From NCBI RefSeq assembly GCF_056712565.1, contig NZ_CM160072.1: a DNA stretch of 64,000 nt. The stretch is one strand, 5' to 3'. The position numbers were made by a program, and so were the translations under genes. Shown here one piece after another: positions 5,591 through 29,040 of this stretch; the first letter of the stretch is position 1, and every line of letters begins with the position of its first letter. The notes under the pieces were generated by a model, which saw nothing but the letters and a program-made list of their open reading frames with translations, was not told where the DNA came from and made no database searches.

Positions 5591-5728
5591 TTAAATAAGT
5601 GATATTGGTTGTCTGGAGATTCTGGGGGCTAGTCTAGTTTTAAAGCGCCCCCTGCCGTATCAGAACTGGGGAATGCTACAGGGTTTGACCTGTTCCTCGA
5701 GGATCGTAGCGGAGCTAGCCATGAAAAA

Positions 5729-6793
5729 ATGATCCAGGCCCGAAATCAGCTTCTTGCTGAAGCGGCGAAAAGTCCAGCGTTAAACATGGTTCGTCCTAAC
5801 GGCATGAACGATGAGCCTCAGTTCCAGATTCTGATTGATGACGAGAAAGTTCAGGCGTTTAAACTGAGCATGAGCGACGTCGACAACATAATGTCAGCAG
5901 CCTGGGGTTCGATGTATGTAAATGATTTTAACGATCGTGGACGGGTGAAAAAAGTCTATATTCAGGGCGAACCCGGCTCACGTATATCACCGCAGGATTT
6001 TGATAAATGGTATGTCCGTAACAGTGATGGCGACATGGTTTCCTTTGCCTCTTTTGCAACAGGCAAATGGATTTATGGCTCACCAAAACTGGAGCAATAT
6101 AATGGTATCTCTGCTGTCGAAATCCTGGGGGAACCGGCACCAGGATACAGTTCCGGGGATGCAATGAAAGCAATTGAGGATATTGCGGCAAGACTTCCCG
6201 AAGGTTTCCATATTTCCTGGACAGGTTTGTCTTTTGAGGAACGACTTTCAGGTTCTCAGGCTCCTGCACTATATGCACTTTCACTGTTGATCGTCTTTCT
6301 GTGTCTGGCTGCACTGTATGAAAGCTGGAGCATTCCTTTCTCGGTCATGCTGGTTGTTCCGCTTGGTGTCCTGGGGGCTGTCTGTGCTACTTTGTTGCGC
6401 GGCCTTGGTAACGATGTCTTTTTCCAGGTCGGTTTATTAACAACAATAGGGCTGTCTGCGAAAAATGCCATACTTATCGTGGAGTTTGCTCGTGAATTGC
6501 ATGAGAAAGAAGGACTAAGCATTAAAGAGGCTGCTGTTGAAGCGGCGAGAGTGAGGTTAAGACCGATAATTATGACTTCGCTGGCATTTGTAATGGGGGT
6601 TATCCCACTGGCTGTCTCGACTGGAGCAAGTTCCGGAAGTAAACATGCCATCGGTACTGGTGTGGTTGGAGGGATGATCACTGCTACGATACTGGCAATC
6701 TTTTATATTCCTCTCTTCTATATGTTAATTGCCGGGTTCTTCAGCCGCAGAAATAAGAAATCATCGGATAAGACTGAAGCTGAGCAATCATAA
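5729..6793 (+). pseudogene. C-terminal third of an RND multidrug efflux permease (AcrB/AcrF-like); 5' two-thirds absent
   Basis: ORF aligns to the last ~350 residues of AcrB ([19 protein letters not shown]..., [20 protein letters not shown]..., MTSLAF) with nothing coding for the N-terminal ~650 aa. Confidence 0.75.
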
Positions 6794-6892
6794 GCATGAG
6801 TAAATATTCAGGTGCAGTAAACAACATACTGCGCCTGAGTAAATGGCTGTTGGGTTGGTACTAAATGCCCCAGAGATATTTCCTGAAATAAG

Positions 6893-7264
6893 ATGTCAAT
6901 GGAGATTTCAACAGTGGTGCGGCACACAAAATTTGCAGCGGAAGAAACCCGCAAACAAATCCTGGATGTGGCAGAGTTCTGCTTTTGTGAGACGGGCTTT
7001 TCGAAGACGACACTGGAGATGATTGCGGCGCGCGCAGGTTGTACTCGGGGGGCCATATACTGGTATTTCAACGAAAAAAAAGATCTTCTGCGACAAGTCA
7101 TCGAGCGGGTACCACTATCATTATTTGATGAGCTTACAGCCATCAAAAATGGGAGAGTTTTTGAACCGGTTAAAGCGATGTATCGTTGCTTATCACGTAG
7201 CCTGATTAAATTACAATATAATGTACACTTACGGAATGTAATTTATATTGTGTTTTTTTTGTGA
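6893..7264 (+). pseudogene. TetR/AcrR-family regulator, N-terminal HTH retained, C-terminus degenerate
   Basis: TetR HTH signature (TTLEMIAARAGCTRGAIYWYFNEKKDLL); ORF is only 123 aa and ends in low-complexity sequence. Confidence 0.55.
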
Positions 7265-7535
7265 AGAATGTCCGGATGATATAAGAATAAATTTCTTACA
7301 AAAAATGGTGGATGTCAATAATTTTGTGAAATTACTATGTTATATTTTCGAAAAAGGTAAGTTATATAGAGAAATATGTTTGGAAATTCGTAGTGAGACT
7401 CTGGCGTTCCTGCTTTTTTCTTTGTTTACGGGGGGGGGCGAAGTTGCATTCTGCAACCTGATAATAAATCCCTTTTCAGAGAGGGTTGCATAGTACTGGA
7501 GTTGACCCAATCAACCTTCACAGGCATCGATAAAA

Positions 7536-7881
7536 ATGAACGCTACTATAAAAAACAGCTCTGATATCAATGAGTTTGCTAAATGGATTGATGAAAATCT
7601 TGAGGTAGAACTCTCAATAAATATTGAGGCAAAAAAAGCTGGATATTCAAAATGGTATTTACAGAGATTGTTTAAACATATCATTGGTATTTCTATTGGT
7701 AGGTATATTAATAAATGCAGCAGAAGAACTACGTTCTACTACTGAATCGGTCACGACTATCACTTTTAAATATCAGTTTGATTTTCAGCAGACATTTACA
7801 AGGGCATTTACTCGCCGCTTTGGTATAGCTCCTATTGCATACCGAAAACTCGCTAAGGAAGAAGTGAGATGGAATAGTTAG
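7536..7881 (+). pseudogene. MarA/RamA/SoxS-like small AraC-family activator, split by a frameshift
   Basis: Two overlapping ORFs (7536..7745, 7624..7881) carry the two halves of a MarA-type double HTH (AGYSKWYLQRLFK... / ...FDFQQTFTRAFTRRFGIAPIAYRK). Confidence 0.55.
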
Positions 7882-8183
7882 TTATGTAAGCGTTATTTAC
7901 TTAAGCGTGGATATATAAGAATGATATTATCAATATGTTGCTCATGAGTTTTTAATAGCATATAGGCTTGTTAACATAGCCCAGCAATATACTTTGCAGT
8001 GGGAGCAGGTATGCATACAGAACAGTGGGCGAGGACGAGCGTCCCTTTTCGAACAAGGTAGCAAAAGAGGAAGAAGAAAGACAAATACAACTGGGCCTGA
8101 AAGGGTAGTGTTTAAGCCCCCTTTCAGGGGGCCGTGTCAAAGCCGCCCGCTATGCAGATGGTTTTTTACTTTATCTGTTAAGC

Positions 8184-8237: not shown

Positions 8238-8783
8238 TTATTTTTTCTTGCCGCTGGAACGAGGACCTTTCTTTGCTGCCTCCTGCGGTACATCAGATTT
8301 TGTAGGTTTAGTGTTTTCTATTGAGGGTTTAACTGGTTGATGCTGCTCCACGGACTTCAGCGTTTCATCAGTGACATCCATACAGGATGCGCTGATTGAC
8401 GTATCAAGGTTAACCACCGGGAATGTCTGTGAAGGCGCGTTTTCAGCCTGCAGTGTCGGTTGTGCAGCAGGCACTTCAGGTTGAGGTTCTGCGACGCCGG
8501 CGGTCACTTTAGAGTGAATAATCTGCTCGATATGCTGCGCGGTGCGGGCGATCACCTTATGGGCATACACCTCGCCAACCCGGCTTGCCGCGCTGATGGC
8601 TGCCGCTACCGCCGCGTTAATTGCGCCCACTTCCCCTTCCAGCTTCACGGTCACCATCCCGCCGCCTTTCGTCAATTCATAGCCTACCAGACTAACGTTA
8701 GCGGATTTCATTGCGGCATCGGCGGCTTCTACCGCCGCAGACATCCCGACGGTTTCGATTAAGCCTAAACTTTTCCCAGACAT
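8238..8783 (-). CDS. BMC-H microcompartment shell protein with a long Pro/Gln/Glu-rich C-terminal extension (PduK-like architecture)
   Basis: N-terminus MSGKSLGLIETVGMSAAVEAADAAMKSANVSLVGYE is a canonical BMC (PduA/EutM) domain; AGGAGA RBS before the ATG at 8783; ~90 aa tail follows. Confidence 0.8.
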   Translation of the reverse strand: MSGKSLGLIETVGMSAAVEAADAAMKSANVSLVGYELTKGGGMVTVKLEGEVGAINAAVAAAISAASRVGEVYAHKVIARTAQHIEQIIHSKVTAGVAEPQPEVPAAQPTLQAENAPSQTFPVVNLDTSISASCMDVTDETLKSVEQHQPVKPSIENTKPTKSDVPQEAAKKGPRSSGKKK

Positions 8784-8827
8784 AAATTTCTCCTGTAATA
8801 AATTCAACTGTGCTGCGCGTCGTCGGC

Positions 8828-9979
8828 TTAACGTCCAACGTCTTCGTATAATAGCGCCGCTTTGTCCGTAACTTCCCACGGAAAGCTGTCGCGACCAAAG
8901 TGACCATAGCAGGCTGTTTTACGATAGCGGGGGACCAGCAGATCAAGCGTAGTAATGATGCCGAACACGCTAAGATCGAAATGGCTGTTAACGCCTCTCA
9001 GCAACGCTTCAGATGACACTGTTTGTGTACCGAAGGTGTTAATCCTGACGGAAACAGGGCGGGGCAGGCCGATGGCCCATCCCAACTGGACTTCACAGCG
9101 TGAGGCAAGCCCAGCGGCGACGATGTTTTTCGCCACATAGCGAGCAGCGTAGGCGGCGGAACGATCGACTTTCGACGGATCTTTGCCTGAAAACGCGCCG
9201 CCGCCATGGCAAGCCGCGCCGCCATAGGTATCAACAATAATTTTACGCCCCGTTAGCCCGCAGTCACCCACCGGCCCGCCAATCACAAAACTGCCTGCAG
9301 GGTTCACCAGAAAGCGGGTTTGTGGTGTGAGCCAGTGCGAAGGCATCACAGGTTTAACAATTTCTTCGATGACCGCTTCCCGTAGCGCGTCCAGAGAAAC
9401 GTCAGGGCTGTGTTGGGTAGACACCACAACGGTATCTACTGAATGAACACGATTATCCTGATAGCGCAGGGTAACCTGGCTTTTGGCATCAGGGAGTAAA
9501 AATGGTAACCGTTGGGATTTACGCAACTGCGCCTGGCGCTCCATCAGACGATGGGCGTATACCAGCGTGGCGGGCATCAGTTCCGACGTTTCATCACAGG
9601 CGTAACCGAAGGTGATGCCCTGATCGCCCGCCCCCAGTTCTTCCATCGAGTGGCCGCGAATGCCTTCAGCAATATTGGCGGACTGTTTGCCAAGGATATT
9701 TAATACACAGCAGGTATTGCCATCAAACCCCAATCGCGAATGGTCGTAACCAATCTCTTTTATGGTGTTGCGGACAATCTTCTCAATATCCACGGCGGCA
9801 TGGGTAGATATTTCTCCGGCAACAATAGTGGCACCAGTTTTCACCAAGCATTCACAGGCAACCTTACCCCACGGGTCCTGTAGGAGTATCGCATCCAAAA
9901 TGGCATCAGAAATTTGGTCCGCCATTTTATCGGGATGCCCTTCGGCAACGGATTCGGAGGTAAACAGGTAATCGTTCAA
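8828..9979 (-). CDS. S-adenosylmethionine synthetase paralog (MetK-like), apparent TTG start
   Basis: Full-length collinear MetK signatures ([33 protein letters not shown]) but clearly diverged from housekeeping MetK and not in the metK genomic context. Confidence 0.85.
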
Positions 9980-9985
9980 AGCGAG

Positions 9986-10039
9986 CCCACTTGTTTGGGA
10001 AGTTTATTCCTATCTTAGGATAGGAACCTGACAAGTGGG
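9986..10039 (-). promoter_or_regulatory. Long hyphenated palindrome immediately 5' of the MetK-paralog start codon
   Basis: CCCACTTGT...ACAAGTGGG outer arms around a perfect inner inverted repeat TTCCTATC-TTAG-GATAGGAA; lies 7-60 nt upstream of the start. Confidence 0.35.
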
Positions 10040-10107
10040 CGTAAACTATCTTGCGGGCGTGTTGGACTATTTTGCTTTCATTATCGGGCCAATGCAAAAT
10101 CACGCCA

Positions 10108-11163
10108 TCACCGTGTAATTCCCGGGGACACGACTTTTCGATAATCAGAGGGGGTCATGCCAGTATCTTTTTTGAAGATGCGGCAAAAATAGTTTGAATC
10201 CTGGTATGCCAGTTCCAGCGCAATGGTATTTACTTGTAAGTCACTGAACCGCAATAACGATTTGGCGATAGTAATTTTACGCGTGGCAATATAGTTCGAA
10301 AACCCGAACCCGGTAATTTTCTTAAAGGTACGGCTCAAATAGCAGGCACTGACAAACGATTTTGCTGCCACGTCATCGAGCGTCAAGTTTCTGAGAATAT
10401 TTTTCTCAATATGGAATTTCGCTCGTTCGATAAAATCGATATTGCCTGTATAGCCTTTTAATGCGTAATCAAACAGCTCTTCGCTAATGGTCAGCAGGCT
10501 GATCATGATGCGGAAATAGCGGCTTTCCATCATGCCATACTGGTTGATGTCTTTGATCAGCGCGGCGACTTTACGGTTAGTCGGCATTAACTTTTCCCCT
10601 TTGGCGGTCATATACTGGCTAACTATTTCCAGAAAATCGATCACGTCTTTGCGCTTATCCTCTTCTATCATATCCACCGGACAGGCACCGTTGAGCGTGT
10701 CAAAAATAAAGTTGTGCCACTGGGTGTAATCGCAATCGTCTATCATGGCGAACACTTTCTGTTTTAGGGCGCGGGATTTTTCATTTTCTCCTTCGTCGAA
10801 TGCTAGGGTTTTTTTGATGGTGTCGGTCAAGATACATTTTTTCACTGGTTTGAGCAGATAATCATCCACTTTAAGGTTGTACATGCTGCGTACTATATCA
10901 AAGTCATCATTGGCCGTGATTACGATGATTTTAGTATCGCTGTTTTTTTTCTTCAGATATTCAATCACCTGTTTACCGTTCGGCAACGGAATATTAATGT
11001 CCACTAAGATCATATCGATTTGACTCAGTTGGTCAATTAAGTGAATCGCTTTTTTACCGGTTGAGGCTTCATGGATCGCAGCGTTTTCCACACACTGGGA
11101 GATAATCTGCCGCAGGGATTCTAATTCGATGGGCTCATCTTCAACGATAACAATGGTAAACAT
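10108..11163 (-). CDS. Two-component response regulator, receiver + AraC-type HTH output domain
   Basis: N-terminal receiver (IVEDEP..., DMILVDINIP, KIIVITAND) and C-terminal AraC HTH (SACYLSRTFKKITGFGFSNYIATRKI). Confidence 0.8.
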   Translation of the reverse strand: MFTIVIVEDEPIELESLRQIISQCVENAAIHEASTGKKAIHLIDQLSQIDMILVDINIPLPNGKQVIEYLKKKNSDTKIIVITANDDFDIVRSMYNLKVDDYLLKPVKKCILTDTIKKTLAFDEGENEKSRALKQKVFAMIDDCDYTQWHNFIFDTLNGACPVDMIEEDKRKDVIDFLEIVSQYMTAKGEKLMPTNRKVAALIKDINQYGMMESRYFRIMISLLTISEELFDYALKGYTGNIDFIERAKFHIEKNILRNLTLDDVAAKSFVSACYLSRTFKKITGFGFSNYIATRKITIAKSLLRFSDLQVNTIALELAYQDSNYFCRIFKKDTGMTPSDYRKVVSPGITR

Positions 11164-11179
11164 ATGTCCTTTTCCTGTA

Positions 11180-12442
11180 TCAGGCTTCCTGCATTGGGAA
11201 CCGAAGTTTAATGGTTGTACCCATCCTGGGTTTGTTAGGGCTCATTATTTCCAAGCCATAGCTCTCGCCAAATAACAACTTCAATCTATTTTTTATGTTG
11301 TTAATGCCAATACTGCCTTTTTGCAATTTTTGGTCGCCTGATAAAATGCGATTAATGGTATCTGGTGCGATGCCGTCGCCATTGTCAGTGACTTCAATAA
11401 TCACGTTCAGGCCATCGTCCGTGGCACGGATCAGCAGATGACTATTGCTATCCCTTGGCTCCACTACGTAGTTAAAGAAGTTTTCCACCAGCGGTTGCAG
11501 GATCAAAAACGGGCAGACTACATCCAGATATTTTTCCGGGATATCGCACAGGTAATCGAAACGGTCTCTCATACGCACTTTTTGGATCGACATATAGTTG
11601 TTGACGTAATTTATTTCATTACGCAGAGTAATCAGGCCGTGACTATTTTTACGTAACAAATAGCGCATCATGTCAGAGAAATCGTGCACCATTGTTTCGG
11701 TACGCTGCGCATCTTCAAGAAAAGCTAACCGGCCAATGGTATTTAATACGTTAAATAAAAAGTGTGGATTTATCTGATAAGAGAGCGCTTTAAATTCAGC
11801 TTCATGTAGTGAGCGTTCTATCTCTACACGTTTTCTTAACTCATTAGCCAGTGCAAGATCCTTTTTACGAAGTTCGCGTTGGATATTATTGGTGTGCGCT
11901 TGTTCGACCAGATAAGACGATACGTGTAGTAACGTCGAGGCAGTAGACTCAAAACGCTCATACGGCATGCGACGTGTATTCTGGTGCAAATTAATTAACC
12001 AAGGATTATCTTTCCAGACGTCATTATTATTCAGAATATAGGAAATGCTCTGTTCTTTCTCTTCTTCGACTTTTACCTGACCGGAAATAAAAGCACCGAG
12101 ATAATGATCGTTAATCATGATTGGGACAGCGAATTCGACAAAACCGCAGTGGCAGCGATAAACCACCGGTTTGCGAGCGTGCATCGCGGCACGGCCACCA
12201 GCGTTGTCGCTTTCATAACAGTGGTGCGCCAGTGTCGGGTTGAGACGCGAACGCATGCAGAAGTCTGAAAAACCGCTGGGCTTAGTGACCGGGATACCAT
12301 TCTCATCCACAACCACGAGCGCGATCATCATTGATTTTGAAAAGTTGTCCTGCAGGGTCTGAAGGCGTTTTACATCCAAAAACTCATTTAATTTGTATTT
12401 ATTCTTCATACTTTCAGCCTGCATTTTTAAAAACATAATCAT
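11180..12442 (-). CDS. Sensor histidine kinase with N-terminal PocR ligand-binding domain (LytS/YesM-type kinase core)
   Basis: PocR-like block (FSDFCMRSR...HHCYESD...[15 protein letters not shown]...GQV), then His-kinase region ([12 protein letters not shown]) and HATPase (DNGDGI...G.G). Confidence 0.8.
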
Positions 12443-12674: not shown

Positions 12675-14515
12675 GATCACCACCTACATAGGAGGTGTTT
12701 TAAAATTGATCGAGTAGGAGGCGGGATCACTCCCGCCGTCCTCTCACACCACCGTACATGCGGCTCCGCATACGGCGGTTCATGTTAACACTGGAACTGC
12801 CTCTGCTGTTCCAGCAGTGATATCAGACCCTGCCTGCTGAACCACGCATTCTTTATCGCCTGATTCATATGGCTTGACTCTGAGTTCCACCATGGCCCGT
12901 GGTTGTTGTACGCTGAGATCATCGCCCTGTCCTTACTCAGTCCTGCTCTTTGCAGGTTCTTTGCCCGGGTTAGCGGTCTCTTCCACTGCCGCTACAACAA
13001 GCAACGCAGTTTCCGTTTGATCCAGCCATCCAGCTCCTCCAGCACTCCTCTGACCTCCGTCAGCCTGAAGTAGCTTATCCATCCACACAGCACTGGTGTC
13101 AGAGCATTGATTGTCGCTTTCACTGATTTGCTCCGGTTTCCCGTCGTCAGACTGTGGACTTTCTCCTTCAGCCTGTTCACGCTCGTCAGGGCTATCTTCA
13201 GCTTCGCCTGTTTGTGCCATGTCACACTGTACCCGAGGAACTTCCGATCCCACGGGCGCGCCACCGCGCTCTTCTTCTCATTCACCTTCAGTTTGTTCTC
13301 CACGAACGCCCTGATGTTCTTCAGCAGATGGTCGCCCGCTTTCCGGCTGCTTACGTAGATGTTGCAGTCGTCTGCGTAGCGGCAGAAGCTGTGTCCACGA
13401 CGCTCCAGTTCTTTATCCAGTTCATCCAGCAGGATGTTCGACAGTAACGGCGACAGTGGGCCGCCCTGCAGCATGCCCGCCTGCCGTTTCTCCCTTTGCC
13501 CGTCTTTAACCATTTCCGCTTTCAGGTAGCGGCGTATCAGTCACAGCACCCGCCTGTCCTTTATCGTTCTGGCCAGACGCGTCATCAGGAGTCTGTGATC
13601 CACCCGGTCGAAGAACTTCTCCAGATCCATATCCACCACCCACCGTTTGCCACCCCGTATGTAACGCTGTGCCTGTTGCACCGCCTGCTGGATAAGCCTG
13701 TCCACCACCGTCGGGATGCCTGAGGTTCTCACGCCGCCATCCGGCTTCGGGATATCCATCCGGCGTATTGTCCGCGGCTGGTAGTTTCCGTCAATCAATG
13801 CCTGCCTGACGCTGCGCCAGTTCTTCTTCAGCCACGGTTTCAACTCCGCCACGCTGAGGTTATCCACCCCCGCCGTGCCTTTGTTTTCCACCACGCGCTG
13901 ATAAGCCAGCATCAGGTTTTCTCTCGTTATCACCGCTTCCATCGTCAGCGGCACTTCCGCTTTCGTTTGCCCACCCGCCGCCGTGCTGATTTCAGCGCCA
14001 TCATGCAGCCCTGACGGATACTGTCCGTCTCCTCTGCCGCTGGTCGCAGTGGCCTGCGCTTGTGCTTCATTAATCATCATCGGGTTCGGATGTCCTAATC
14101 ACAGTTAATCATGTTCGGCCCTTCATGCTGCCGGTTTTGCAGCACTACTACGGCGTCGGCTGACTTCTGCCGCCCCATCCCGGCGCCTCACGGCGCCGGT
14201 AGCACACTGGCAGGGCGACAGATCTCCCGGGGTAATTCACGCGACTTTCCTGCTTATGCCTGTCGGCTTTACGTCACAGCGTTCCGTGTGAGTATCGGGC
14301 TTTGGTGATTAGTGCCACCTTACCCTGCTGCGCCGCCTTAACCGCTTCCTGTTCGTCAGGCCAGCATTTTGCATCCAGCTTCCTTCAGATTTCACCTCGC
14401 GATGAACACCCTTGCCTTCCGCTAACACTTCCCCTCACCGGGTGTGTGGAGGACTTTCACCTCTTAGTCGTTCTTCTGCCACCACAGTTGAAGAACAGCG
14501 CCAGTCACGGCGCAC
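12675..14515 (-). mobile_element. Group II intron (~1.8 kb) inserted just downstream of the microcompartment operon terminator; ends approximate
   Basis: Minus-strand GTGCG at 14515..14511 8-9 nt after the terminator T-tract; RT/maturase ORF inside; domain V-like hairpin at ~12745..12775 (CCGTATGCGG / CCGCATGTACGG with 2-nt bulge) and GNRA-capped helix after it. Confidence 0.65.
12784..14080 (-). pseudogene. Group II intron reverse transcriptase/maturase, disrupted by one frameshift (~13515-13540) and one in-frame TAG (12992-12994)
   Basis: RT blocks 0-2 in ORF 13541..14080 (AGVDNLSVAEL, IPKPDGGVRTSGIPTVVDRLIQQA, DMDLEKFFDRVDH); RT4-5 in ORF 12992..13513 (QGGPLSPLLSNILLD, FCRYADDCNIY); maturase tail continues in the same frame past the TAG (QWKRPLTRAKNL...LISLLEQQRQFQC). 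Confidence 0.7.
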
Positions 14516-22810: not shown

Positions 22811-23094
22811 AACGACCTCAATATTTCCGATAGAAAGAAAACGTGCACAGAGGAATAGCAATCTACGGATTCACCCATGTGCATTAATTATTTAATTATC
22901 ATAATGCTAAGGTTATTCAGACAAAATGTTTTGCGCGTCAGTGGGACTATCTTGCTTTTGCATTCCCGCAATTGACAATAAAATCCACCCGAGGTTTGTA
23001 ATAAAAGATCTGCGTTTAAATTTCCTTGCAAAATAGCCCCGCTCTGAATAGCAATCATAATTACTGTTAAAACTGTCGTATTTTTGCCAATTAG

Positions 23095-28592: not shown

Positions 28593-29040
28593 GTGTAACT
28601 ACCTTAATCATGGTAAACGACCAAATTTGATGTCGTTAACCTAACATGGCGATTTTTTTAATGGACTGAGGATGTTTGTGCAGGTGAAGGATTATTTTGC
28701 GGTATTGTTTTGCCTTGAGCAAAAAAGTCCTTTTCTAGGAAATACCTAAAATCTGATACAGTCAAACTCAATATTTATTGTCAGAGAATGAATAAAAGCG
28801 GGGTGTTTTTTTGCCACTGCACTGCTTCAGGAATGTATTCACCCCTCATAAAGGCTTCAATGACTCTCCGCCATGGCAAACATGCCATAGGGGGAGATTT
28901 TCAGATAATGATAATAATGTTCGCCCACATCCGATTGTAAATGGATCAGAAAAATGGCCGCGTATTGCCCTGCTGAATGTGGATTACGTCACCTGTTTTG
29001 AATTGCCTTTCTGCTTACCCGGACACCACAACTGATTGCT

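Follow-up and report, generated by a model that had tools for sequence, protein, structure and literature searches.

A nested palindrome around a predicted promoter element between the grpQ and grpR genes of Escherichia coli

The question raised by this locus is what role can be assigned to a long, perfect nested palindrome that lies between the stop codon of a response-regulator gene and the start codon of a gene for a paralog of MetK. The window (the whole stretch of 64,000 nucleotides analyzed here, from contig NZ_CM160072.1 of NCBI RefSeq assembly GCF_056712565.1) is E. coli chromosome of the B2/ExPEC type, and 2.4 kb of the region is 100% identical to ATCC 11775, S88, and APEC O1. The spacer under study falls within the grp locus, which encodes a glycyl-radical 1,2-propanediol microcompartment and is carried by 538 of 5426 complete E. 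coli genomes. This microcompartment serves B12-independent fermentation of 1,2-propanediol in uropathogenic and avian pathogenic E. coli. A first-pass annotation had read the palindrome as occluding the ribosome-binding region of the MetK paralog or, at the DNA level, as a dimeric regulator site. That interpretation was partly right, and what it probably missed is that the palindrome encloses the predicted -10 element of a deeply conserved internal promoter of the activator type.

Gene order and anatomy of the spacer

The genes and the spacer are arranged as follows:

11180-12442, minus strand: grpP, sensor kinase (RefSeq)
10108-11163, minus strand: grpQ, response regulator with a REC domain and an AraC-type HTH (RefSeq; NCBIfam REC and AraC/RhaS/XylS-type HTH models)
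9980-10107: the grpQ-grpR spacer, 128 nt
8828-9979, minus strand: grpR, MetK paralog (SAM synthetase/methionine adenosyltransferase; NCBIfam metK equivalog, 588 bits)
8238-8783, minus strand: grpS, BMC shell protein, 3' of grpR and called co-transcribed with it (RefSeq, NCBIfam)

The response regulator, the MetK paralog, and its TTG start had all been called from the letters alone, and these calls match RefSeq and NCBIfam. The TTG at 9979-9977 is identical to the RefSeq start, and the N-terminus of GrpR can be aligned from residue 1 in 12 species. GrpQ is the only transcription factor encoded in the grp locus, with no second regulator.

In every species compared, grpQ and grpR are co-directional. 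In all of the other species, as well as in E. coli L73, grpPQRS is a separate four-gene unit that is convergent with grpA-O; in L73 (L139 17740-23989) and in L002-L027, grpO/grpN is found on the opposite strand right after grpS. Thus, induction of grpR and grpS needs either an internal promoter or read-through. Judging from these arrangements, the co-directional grpPQRS layout that is seen in the window (8238-12442) and is common in B2 E. coli is a derived inversion. Fragments of a group II intron reverse transcriptase/maturase occur at 12992-14080, exactly at the junction of grpO and grpP in the inverted module, and may mark the rearrangement breakpoint. Downstream of grpS, at about 5650-7900, there are fragments of genes for RND efflux, TetR, and AraC, together with what remains of a transposase (RefSeq pseudogenes or short ORFs), which are genomic-island debris flanking the grp locus. 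Published measurements show that grpR mRNA is lower in a grpPQ deletion under anaerobic 1,2-propanediol, and that grp induction requires anaerobiosis plus propanediol (PMC11724981). Our search of the literature and of available data found no transcript-start data for grp under inducing conditions, and the literature searched held no description of grp promoters and operator sites.

The palindrome is made up of an outer and an inner stem, for which the main elements are these:

10031-10040, minus strand: outer 5' arm, which reads GCCCACTTGT in the mRNA and falls in the spacer/-35 region of the predicted promoter (inverted-repeat search and folding)
10019-10026, minus strand: 5' arm of the inner stem, TTCCTATC, found in the common E. 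coli allele only (alignments)
9985-9994, minus strand: 3' arm of the outer stem, ACAAGTGGGC, which includes the Shine-Dalgarno-like AAGUGGG (9992-9986)

The outer arms, GCCCACTTGT and ACAAGTGGGC, are 10 nt long, 100% complementary, and have 36 nt between them, and the inner arms, TTCCTATC (10019-10026) and GATAGGAA (10007-10014), are 8 nt long and 100% complementary around a 4-nt loop. The element reported by the first-pass annotation is therefore present, with perfect arms and in a single copy, although its length is 56 nt rather than about 54 nt, and the 3' arm, which ends at 9985 on the mRNA strand, comes to within 5 nt of the TTG at 9979-9977 rather than about 7 nt. The palindrome is far beyond chance, its pattern being seen once in the window and in 0 of 100 shuffles, and complementarity of the flanks around the loop in the window sequence has p = 0.001. 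RNA folding of 9960-10110 on the minus strand (151 nt), along the lines that had been proposed, gives a strong stem (-45 kcal/mol, z = -4.2); the part from the proximal repeat described below to the start codon gives z = -6.2, and the palindrome folded as DNA gives z = -5.8. Each of 538 E. coli genomes has it at a single place, and among the 535 that carry the common allele all sampled records agree with it at 100% identity. A dispersed repeat of the REP/ERIC type, or the end of a mobile element, can be rejected, given a single copy both in the window and per genome.

The 3' arm covers the AAGUGGG, which is the only Shine-Dalgarno-like sequence, 6 nt before the TTG. It is weak: paired by hand with the 3' end of 16S rRNA, it makes six of seven pairs, one of which is G.U. 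The GG at the Shine-Dalgarno position is nearly invariant among aligned relatives.

Several known kinds of element were compared with the palindrome and do not account for it. As had been noted from the letters, it is not a simple terminator. The sequence after the stem (CUCGCUUUGAAC) has no T-tract, and the terminator scan found 0 sites in 9700-10400 and so none between grpQ and grpR; the stem is rejected as a Rho-independent terminator. Housekeeping metK is controlled by MetJ boxes in Enterobacteria and by SAM riboswitches elsewhere, and comparison with both had been suggested for this site, with negative results in each case. A MetJ operator was taken to be at least two tandem 8-bp met boxes (AGACGTCT); there were 0 matches to AGACGTCTAGACGTCT (16 nt) with up to three mismatches in the whole window, and a MetJ site is rejected. 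Rfam cmscan of 9500-10600 at E <= 10 gave no riboswitch match and none in the spacer, its only matches being four at chance level (E 0.97-3.4), all outside the spacer, so that a SAM riboswitch or other known RNA family is also rejected. Nor is the spacer homologous to the leader of housekeeping metK, as the similarity ends inside the coding region. Like housekeeping metK, then, grpR is a SAM synthetase gene, but it has no MetJ box, riboswitch, or related leader, and its regulatory logic follows propanediol sensing rather than methionine or SAM.

Conserved boxes and a predicted internal promoter

Relatives of the spacer came from two scans. A GrpQ scan recovered grpQ-grpR adjacency, with a spacer of 119-142 nt, in Atlantibacter (three species), Citrobacter freundii, Silvania (two), Rahnella, Rouxiella, Klebsiella indica, an Enterobacterales MAG, and two Vibrio species. 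Lineages L019, L020, and L049 and an E. coli-like variant came from a scan of metagenomes for a DNA pattern, in which six to seven of the 120 stretches were genuine grpQ-grpR loci, the rest being mostly chance. The comparison set contains 16 sequences from about eight lineages, with GrpQ proteins that are 51-94% identical. The sole invariant columns of the spacer in these 16 sequences are two repeats, a TAnnAT hexamer, and the start codon. The relevant features in the window are listed here:

10064-10075, minus strand: distal direct repeat, GCAAAATAGTCC (CAAaAnAGTCC columns invariant in 13 species; PWM score 18.0)
10043-10054, minus strand: proximal direct repeat, GCAAGATAGTTT (CAAnAnAGT invariant in 16 sequences)
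10012-10017, minus strand: TAAGAT, the predicted -10 hexamer, in the loop and the inner 3' arm (TAnnAT invariant in 16 sequences)
10004-10006, minus strand: predicted transcript start, from the -10 geometry
10094-10101, plus strand: inverted partial copy of the repeat, GCAAAATC (read as TTTTGC in the mRNA), with 18 nt between it and the distal repeat downstream

The direct repeats, CAAnAnAGT (in full form GCAAnATAGTyy), are present as two copies exactly 21 bp apart, and the double-repeat pattern has one match per locus, always in the grpQ-grpR spacer. Across the 16 sequences the hexamer takes the forms TAAGAT, TAAAAT, TATGAT, TACCAT, and TAACAT, in which T, A, A, and T are invariant, and its distance from the start of the proximal repeat, examined in 14 species, is 36 nt in 13 of them and 37 nt in E. 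coli.

The reading that we prefer, with a confidence that falls a little short of even, is that the spacer is a conserved, activator-dependent internal promoter for grpR-grpS, with the palindrome folded around its -10. Phosphorylated GrpQ would bind at about -70 and -49, where the two GCAAnATAGTyy repeats stand with their 21-bp period, and bound GrpQ would recruit RNA polymerase to the TAAGAT in the palindrome loop, where there is no usable -35. Transcription would start about 7 nt downstream of the hexamer, and the induced mRNA would have a leader of about 26 nt that contains the 3' arm only. The leader length predicted from the distance between hexamer and start codon is constant across species, at 24-26 nt. 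Because the loop holds an invariant TAnnAT whose spacing from the repeats is fixed, the start of the induced transcript probably falls within the palindrome. The first-pass annotation had implicitly assumed that the grpR mRNA holds the whole palindrome, and the position of this hexamer, 36-37 nt from the repeats, argues against that assumption.

In class II promoters of the AraC/XylS type (araI1-I2 at araBAD, XylS at Pm, RhaS at rhaBAD), two direct-repeat half-sites recur with a 21-bp period, the proximal half-site abuts the -35 region, and there is a recognizable -10 but no -35. The grpR spacer resembles these promoters in its repeat period, in having a -10 without a -35, and in the adjacent gene for a regulator with an AraC-type HTH. 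The half-sites GCAAAATAGTCC and GCAAGATAGTTT are 21 bp apart, with cores invariant in 13-16 sequences, and, as a matter of geometry only, the proximal half-site falls at -35 with the -10 at a matching distance. Relative to the predicted start, the distal repeat would occupy about -71 to -60 and the proximal repeat about -50 to -39, abutting the -35 region. No -35-like hexamer was found 16-18 nt upstream of TAnnAT in the spacer, which is why a generic promoter scan returned nothing in the grpQ-grpR spacer. The likeness has its limits, in that GrpQ is a response regulator (REC plus AraC HTH, YesN-like, acting in a phosphorylated form) and not a ligand-binding AraC protein, and in that the spacer has a third, inverted partial copy of the repeat 18 nt upstream.

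A further difference concerns which protein binds the boxes; GrpQ is the candidate on account of its HTH type, its adjacency, its position as sole regulator in the locus, and the reported dependence of grpR mRNA on grpPQ. The published GrpQ footprint on fimS (29 bp; L141 251-279) does not contain the repeat motif; its best PWM score is 5.1, compared with 13.6-18 for real sites, and 47% of shuffles score as well. Identity of the repeats with the footprint sequence was rejected, as there is no similarity between them. The assignment of the box-binding protein therefore rests on context, and the mismatch implies either two modes of GrpQ binding or an error in one of the two assignments. A third GrpQ half-site was also considered at TAAGATAGG, which has AAGATAG in common with the proximal repeat; this is disfavored because a distance of 36 nt does not keep helical phase with the 21-bp repeats and fits the geometry of a -10.

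The inverted partial copy and the distal repeat together form a first hairpin ("hairpin 1"). The TTTTG of the inverted copy is invariant in the 13-species alignment and is not kept in L049 or L020; the stem it makes is 11 bp in K. indica and the MAG and is similar but imperfect in Rouxiella. One possibility is that this third, inverted box allows alternative occupancy in off and on states, as for AraC. That the whole spacer is a novel structured RNA (hairpin 1, a linker, and hairpin 2) is disfavored, because the conserved blocks are a direct repeat of 21-bp period that also occurs in reverse orientation upstream of grpA, and because hairpin 1 is not retained in L049 and L020.

The repeat motif recurs at two other places in the grp locus of the window, which are its remaining large spacers:

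22923-22955, minus strand: direct repeat pair GCAAGATAGTCC-9-GCAAAACATTTT, 21 bp apart, in the 284-nt grpG-grpH spacer (PWM pair score 26.8)
28689-28730, minus strand: inverted motif pair GGACTTTTTTGC-18-GCAAAATAATCC, upstream of grpA (conserved in L73)

The grpG-grpH pair is conserved in the E. coli L73 allele (92% identical), and from its sequence this spacer is likely to hold a second internal promoter. The distance from box to best -10-like hexamer differs there from that in the grpR spacer by about 2-5 nt, and a search of the grpG-grpH spacer for an equivalent of the hairpin at the grpH repeats found none. One inverted copy of the motif is located farther upstream in the same spacer, at 23028-23039 (plus strand). 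The pair at grpA has an 18-nt spacing, as do, in the grpR spacer, the distal repeat and the inverted partial copy. The grpA leader also has a 10-bp hairpin, GGTTAACGAC/GTCGTTTACC (90% complementary, 28612-28641), about 20 nt upstream of the ATG (28592). A single copy of the motif, GCAATATAGTTC (PWM score 16.9), is found inside the grpQ coding sequence at 10286-10297 (plus strand) and is kept in E. coli L73 and Atlantibacter; it could reflect coding constraint or be an extra site. In V. salinus (L012 2582-2593) and in metagenome lineage L049 (3887-3898), a single copy also precedes grpP by about 125-130 nt, which hints at autoregulation of grpPQ in some species.

Possible read-through RNA and the conservation of the stem

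If the internal promoter is used as predicted, the two arms of the palindrome have different fates. Because the predicted grpR transcript is without the 5' arm, the complete hairpin would form only on RNA that enters from upstream, that is, on read-through from grpPQ, for which the scan found no intervening terminator. On such RNA the hairpin would bury the weak AAGUGGG, so that GrpR would not be translated from uninduced read-through, and the untranslated RNA would be open to Rho-dependent polarity, by which the shell gene grpS would be kept off as well. The palindrome thus probably silences read-through RNA only and not the messenger of grpR itself. We regard as possible, although doubtful, the fuller proposal that the grp two-component module has a built-in insulator, with a promoter in the hairpin, dead read-through, and live RNA where activated GrpQ has started it within the hairpin. 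This proposal, in which the sensor and regulator genes are taken to be constitutively expressed and the dead read-through to be terminated by Rho, would make the element a chromosomal counterpart of transposon fold-back inhibition, with a stem that has been reinvented in several genera and, in the common uropathogenic E. coli allele, a hairpin remodeled by a template-switch mutation that added 1 bp to the spacing between activator site and hexamer.

Computed accessibility differs between the two RNAs. In E. coli, opening of the ribosome site (-14 to +2) costs 15.6 kcal/mol with the 5' arm and 9.0 kcal/mol without it; the predicted short transcript is unstructured (z = +0.27) and still costs about 9 kcal/mol to open. 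The opening energy is at least 5 kcal/mol higher in the long RNA in seven of 14 species, namely E. coli, Atlantibacter, C. freundii, Rouxiella (23.1 vs. 6.1), L019, L094, and Rahnella, and there is no such gap in the other seven (Silvania, the MAG, K. indica, the two Vibrio species, L020, and L049). The stem of V. salinus falls short of the ribosome site. The earlier proposal that the ribosome-binding region is sequestered is supported by the computed values for E. coli RNA with both arms and not for the mRNA that grpR would make from its own promoter. Tight translational control had been suggested from the combination of stem and TTG start. The weak, non-AUG start of GrpR is conserved in 15 of the 16 sequences (TTG in the E. 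coli clade, Rahnella, and L019/L020/L049; GTG in the MAG, Rouxiella, K. indica, and V. salinus; ATG in V. methylphosphonaticus only), and the stem can mask the ribosome site, but the complete palindrome is probably missing from the mRNA made on induction. A mini-ORF of four codons, GTG GGC TCG CTT TGA (9976-9990, minus strand), has a stop that overlaps the grpR TTG (TTGA); it is kept in the clade of E. coli, Atlantibacter, Citrobacter, and L019 and is not found in Rahnella or in the lineages with a GTG start.

The same observations bear on an alternative in which the hairpin belongs to the leader of grpR itself, from a start upstream of 10040, and acts with the TTG as a constitutive or regulated translational operator that keeps GrpR low. 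Any read-through or upstream-initiated RNA would indeed behave in this way, as the stem is very stable and its 3' arm covers the AAGUGGG, and the conservation of a non-AUG start in 15 of 16 sequences fits as well. We nevertheless consider it unlikely: a scan of the spacer found no promoter-like site upstream of the 5' arm, the loop itself holds the invariant TAnnAT with its constant spacing from the repeats, the stem is missing from five lineages in which the weak start persists, and neither a trans-acting opener nor a ligand-binding fold is evident, with no Rfam match.

Evidence that the stem is under selection is partial. Complementarity of the flanks around the hexamer is significant in the clade of E. 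coli, Atlantibacter, Citrobacter, Silvania, and L019 (p 0.001-0.009), in Rouxiella (p = 0.002), where the arms are unrelated and abut the GTG start, and in V. salinus (p = 0.002), again with unrelated arms; the same test found no significant stem around the hexamer in five of the eight lineages. On these sequences, three independent stems among eight lineages seem unlikely to be chance, yet the stem is clearly dispensable. Within the first clade, the outer stem has been kept despite divergence of GrpQ to 68%. In-register covariation over all sequences is weak, with 64% against 55% of cells paired and a score that 12 of 500 shuffles reach, and within the clade 59 of 500 shuffles reach the score. 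The clade shows a single compensatory pair in the stem; the other three changes are one-sided, and each of them leaves a G.U on the sense strand. Together with the turnover of the arms beside invariant boxes, these G.U-only changes would favor a role at the RNA level, on the sense strand, over a protein operator.

This pattern also weighs on the DNA-level explanations, of which the dimeric regulator site put forward by the first-pass annotation is one and a cruciform that would expose the -10 in single-stranded form when negative supercoiling is high under anaerobiosis is another. Perfect inverted repeats of 10-12 bp, with centers about 40-46 bp apart, do bracket the -10, the DNA fold is strong (z = -5.8), and induction of grp needs anaerobiosis as well as propanediol (PMC11724981). 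The arms, however, change in both sequence and register between genera while the neighboring boxes are invariant, the stem tolerates G.T and shows no A.C mismatches, which points to the sense-strand RNA, and the locus has neither a second regulator nor a MetJ site. A dimeric-repressor operator around the -10, or a cruciform, is for these reasons very unlikely.

The inner stem has a history of its own. It is absent in all 15 other sequences, including E. coli L73, which have TTSNN-CC at that position; the closest relatives, L73 and L094, have TTCCC-CC where the window has TTCCTATC. A clustered change of CC to TAT at 10022-10020, which adds 1 nt (minus-strand TTCCTATCC, 10018-10026), produced an arm exactly complementary to the conserved GATAGGAA, and to judge from the alignment it looks like a quasi-palindrome template-switch mutation. 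The same change lengthened the distance from repeat to hexamer from 36 to 37 nt and gave rise to TATCCT, another hexamer resembling a -10, which precedes TAAGAT by 5 nt. Another explanation is that the stems have no selected function and are mutational by-products (for example, of quasi-palindrome template switching) in a spacer where the boxes, the hexamer, and the start alone are constrained. The inner palindrome is a novelty of a single allele derived from the clustered CC to TAT change, five of eight lineages are without a significant stem, and covariation is weak, all of which would be expected of by-products. An absence of function seems improbable to us, however, because stems arose in three independent lineages, each with p <= 0.002-0.009 and always around the same hexamer, and because the outer stem persists across E. 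coli, Atlantibacter, Citrobacter, Silvania, and L019, with GrpQ identity down to 68%.

Related designs and significance

A close analogy for a hairpin that would distinguish between transcripts comes from transposons. In the fold-back inhibition of IS10 and IS50, the 5' arm of an inverted repeat precedes the point at which the element's own transcript begins and the 3' arm lies over the ribosome-binding site, so that RNA initiated externally folds and is translationally silent, which protects the element from outside transcription. The grpR palindrome is similar in that its 5' arm is upstream of the predicted start and its 3' arm is over the ribosome-binding site. It differs in that it sits in a chromosomal catabolic cluster, the incoming transcription would be from its own regulator genes, the start and the effect are predicted, and the stem is missing in several lineages.

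Intercistronic stem-loops that stabilize RNA, such as the REP sequence in malE-malF and the hairpins of the puf operon, offer another comparison. The grpR hairpin is like them in being stable, without a U-tract, and placed between co-directional genes that need different levels, and unlike them in being single-copy and always around a conserved promoter hexamer. An intercistronic element for RNA stability or processing, which protects the 3' end of the grpPQ mRNA or is an RNase III site and so sets the level of the regulators relative to that of grpRS, would account for a stable stem directly 3' of grpQ in a co-directional unit; stems that recur with unrelated sequences fit a purely structural role, as does the V. 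salinus stem that does not reach the ribosome site. Such an element could be anywhere in the spacer, and the stem instead always straddles TAnnAT; moreover, RNA folding places a second hairpin already 3' of the grpQ stop, and five lineages have no stem. We therefore judge this explanation to be quite unlikely, and we retain the internal promoter with its enclosing palindrome as the preferred reading.

On that reading, the grpR spacer is a new instance of known regulatory designs, with an architecture that is plausible but ordinary. If the hairpin does not insulate grpRS, it is an ordinary, lineage-variable spacer hairpin. If it does, a metabolic operon would offer a neat case of translation that depends on the promoter used, and the engineering of microcompartment expression would gain a practical design element. 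GrpPQ has recently been tied to virulence via type 1 fimbriae, and the conserved boxes provide a testable candidate for the sequence that GrpQ recognizes at its own regulon, one that is different from the fimS footprint. For the grp locus itself, an internal promoter would explain how a SAM synthetase and a shell protein come to be induced from a position behind the regulator genes.
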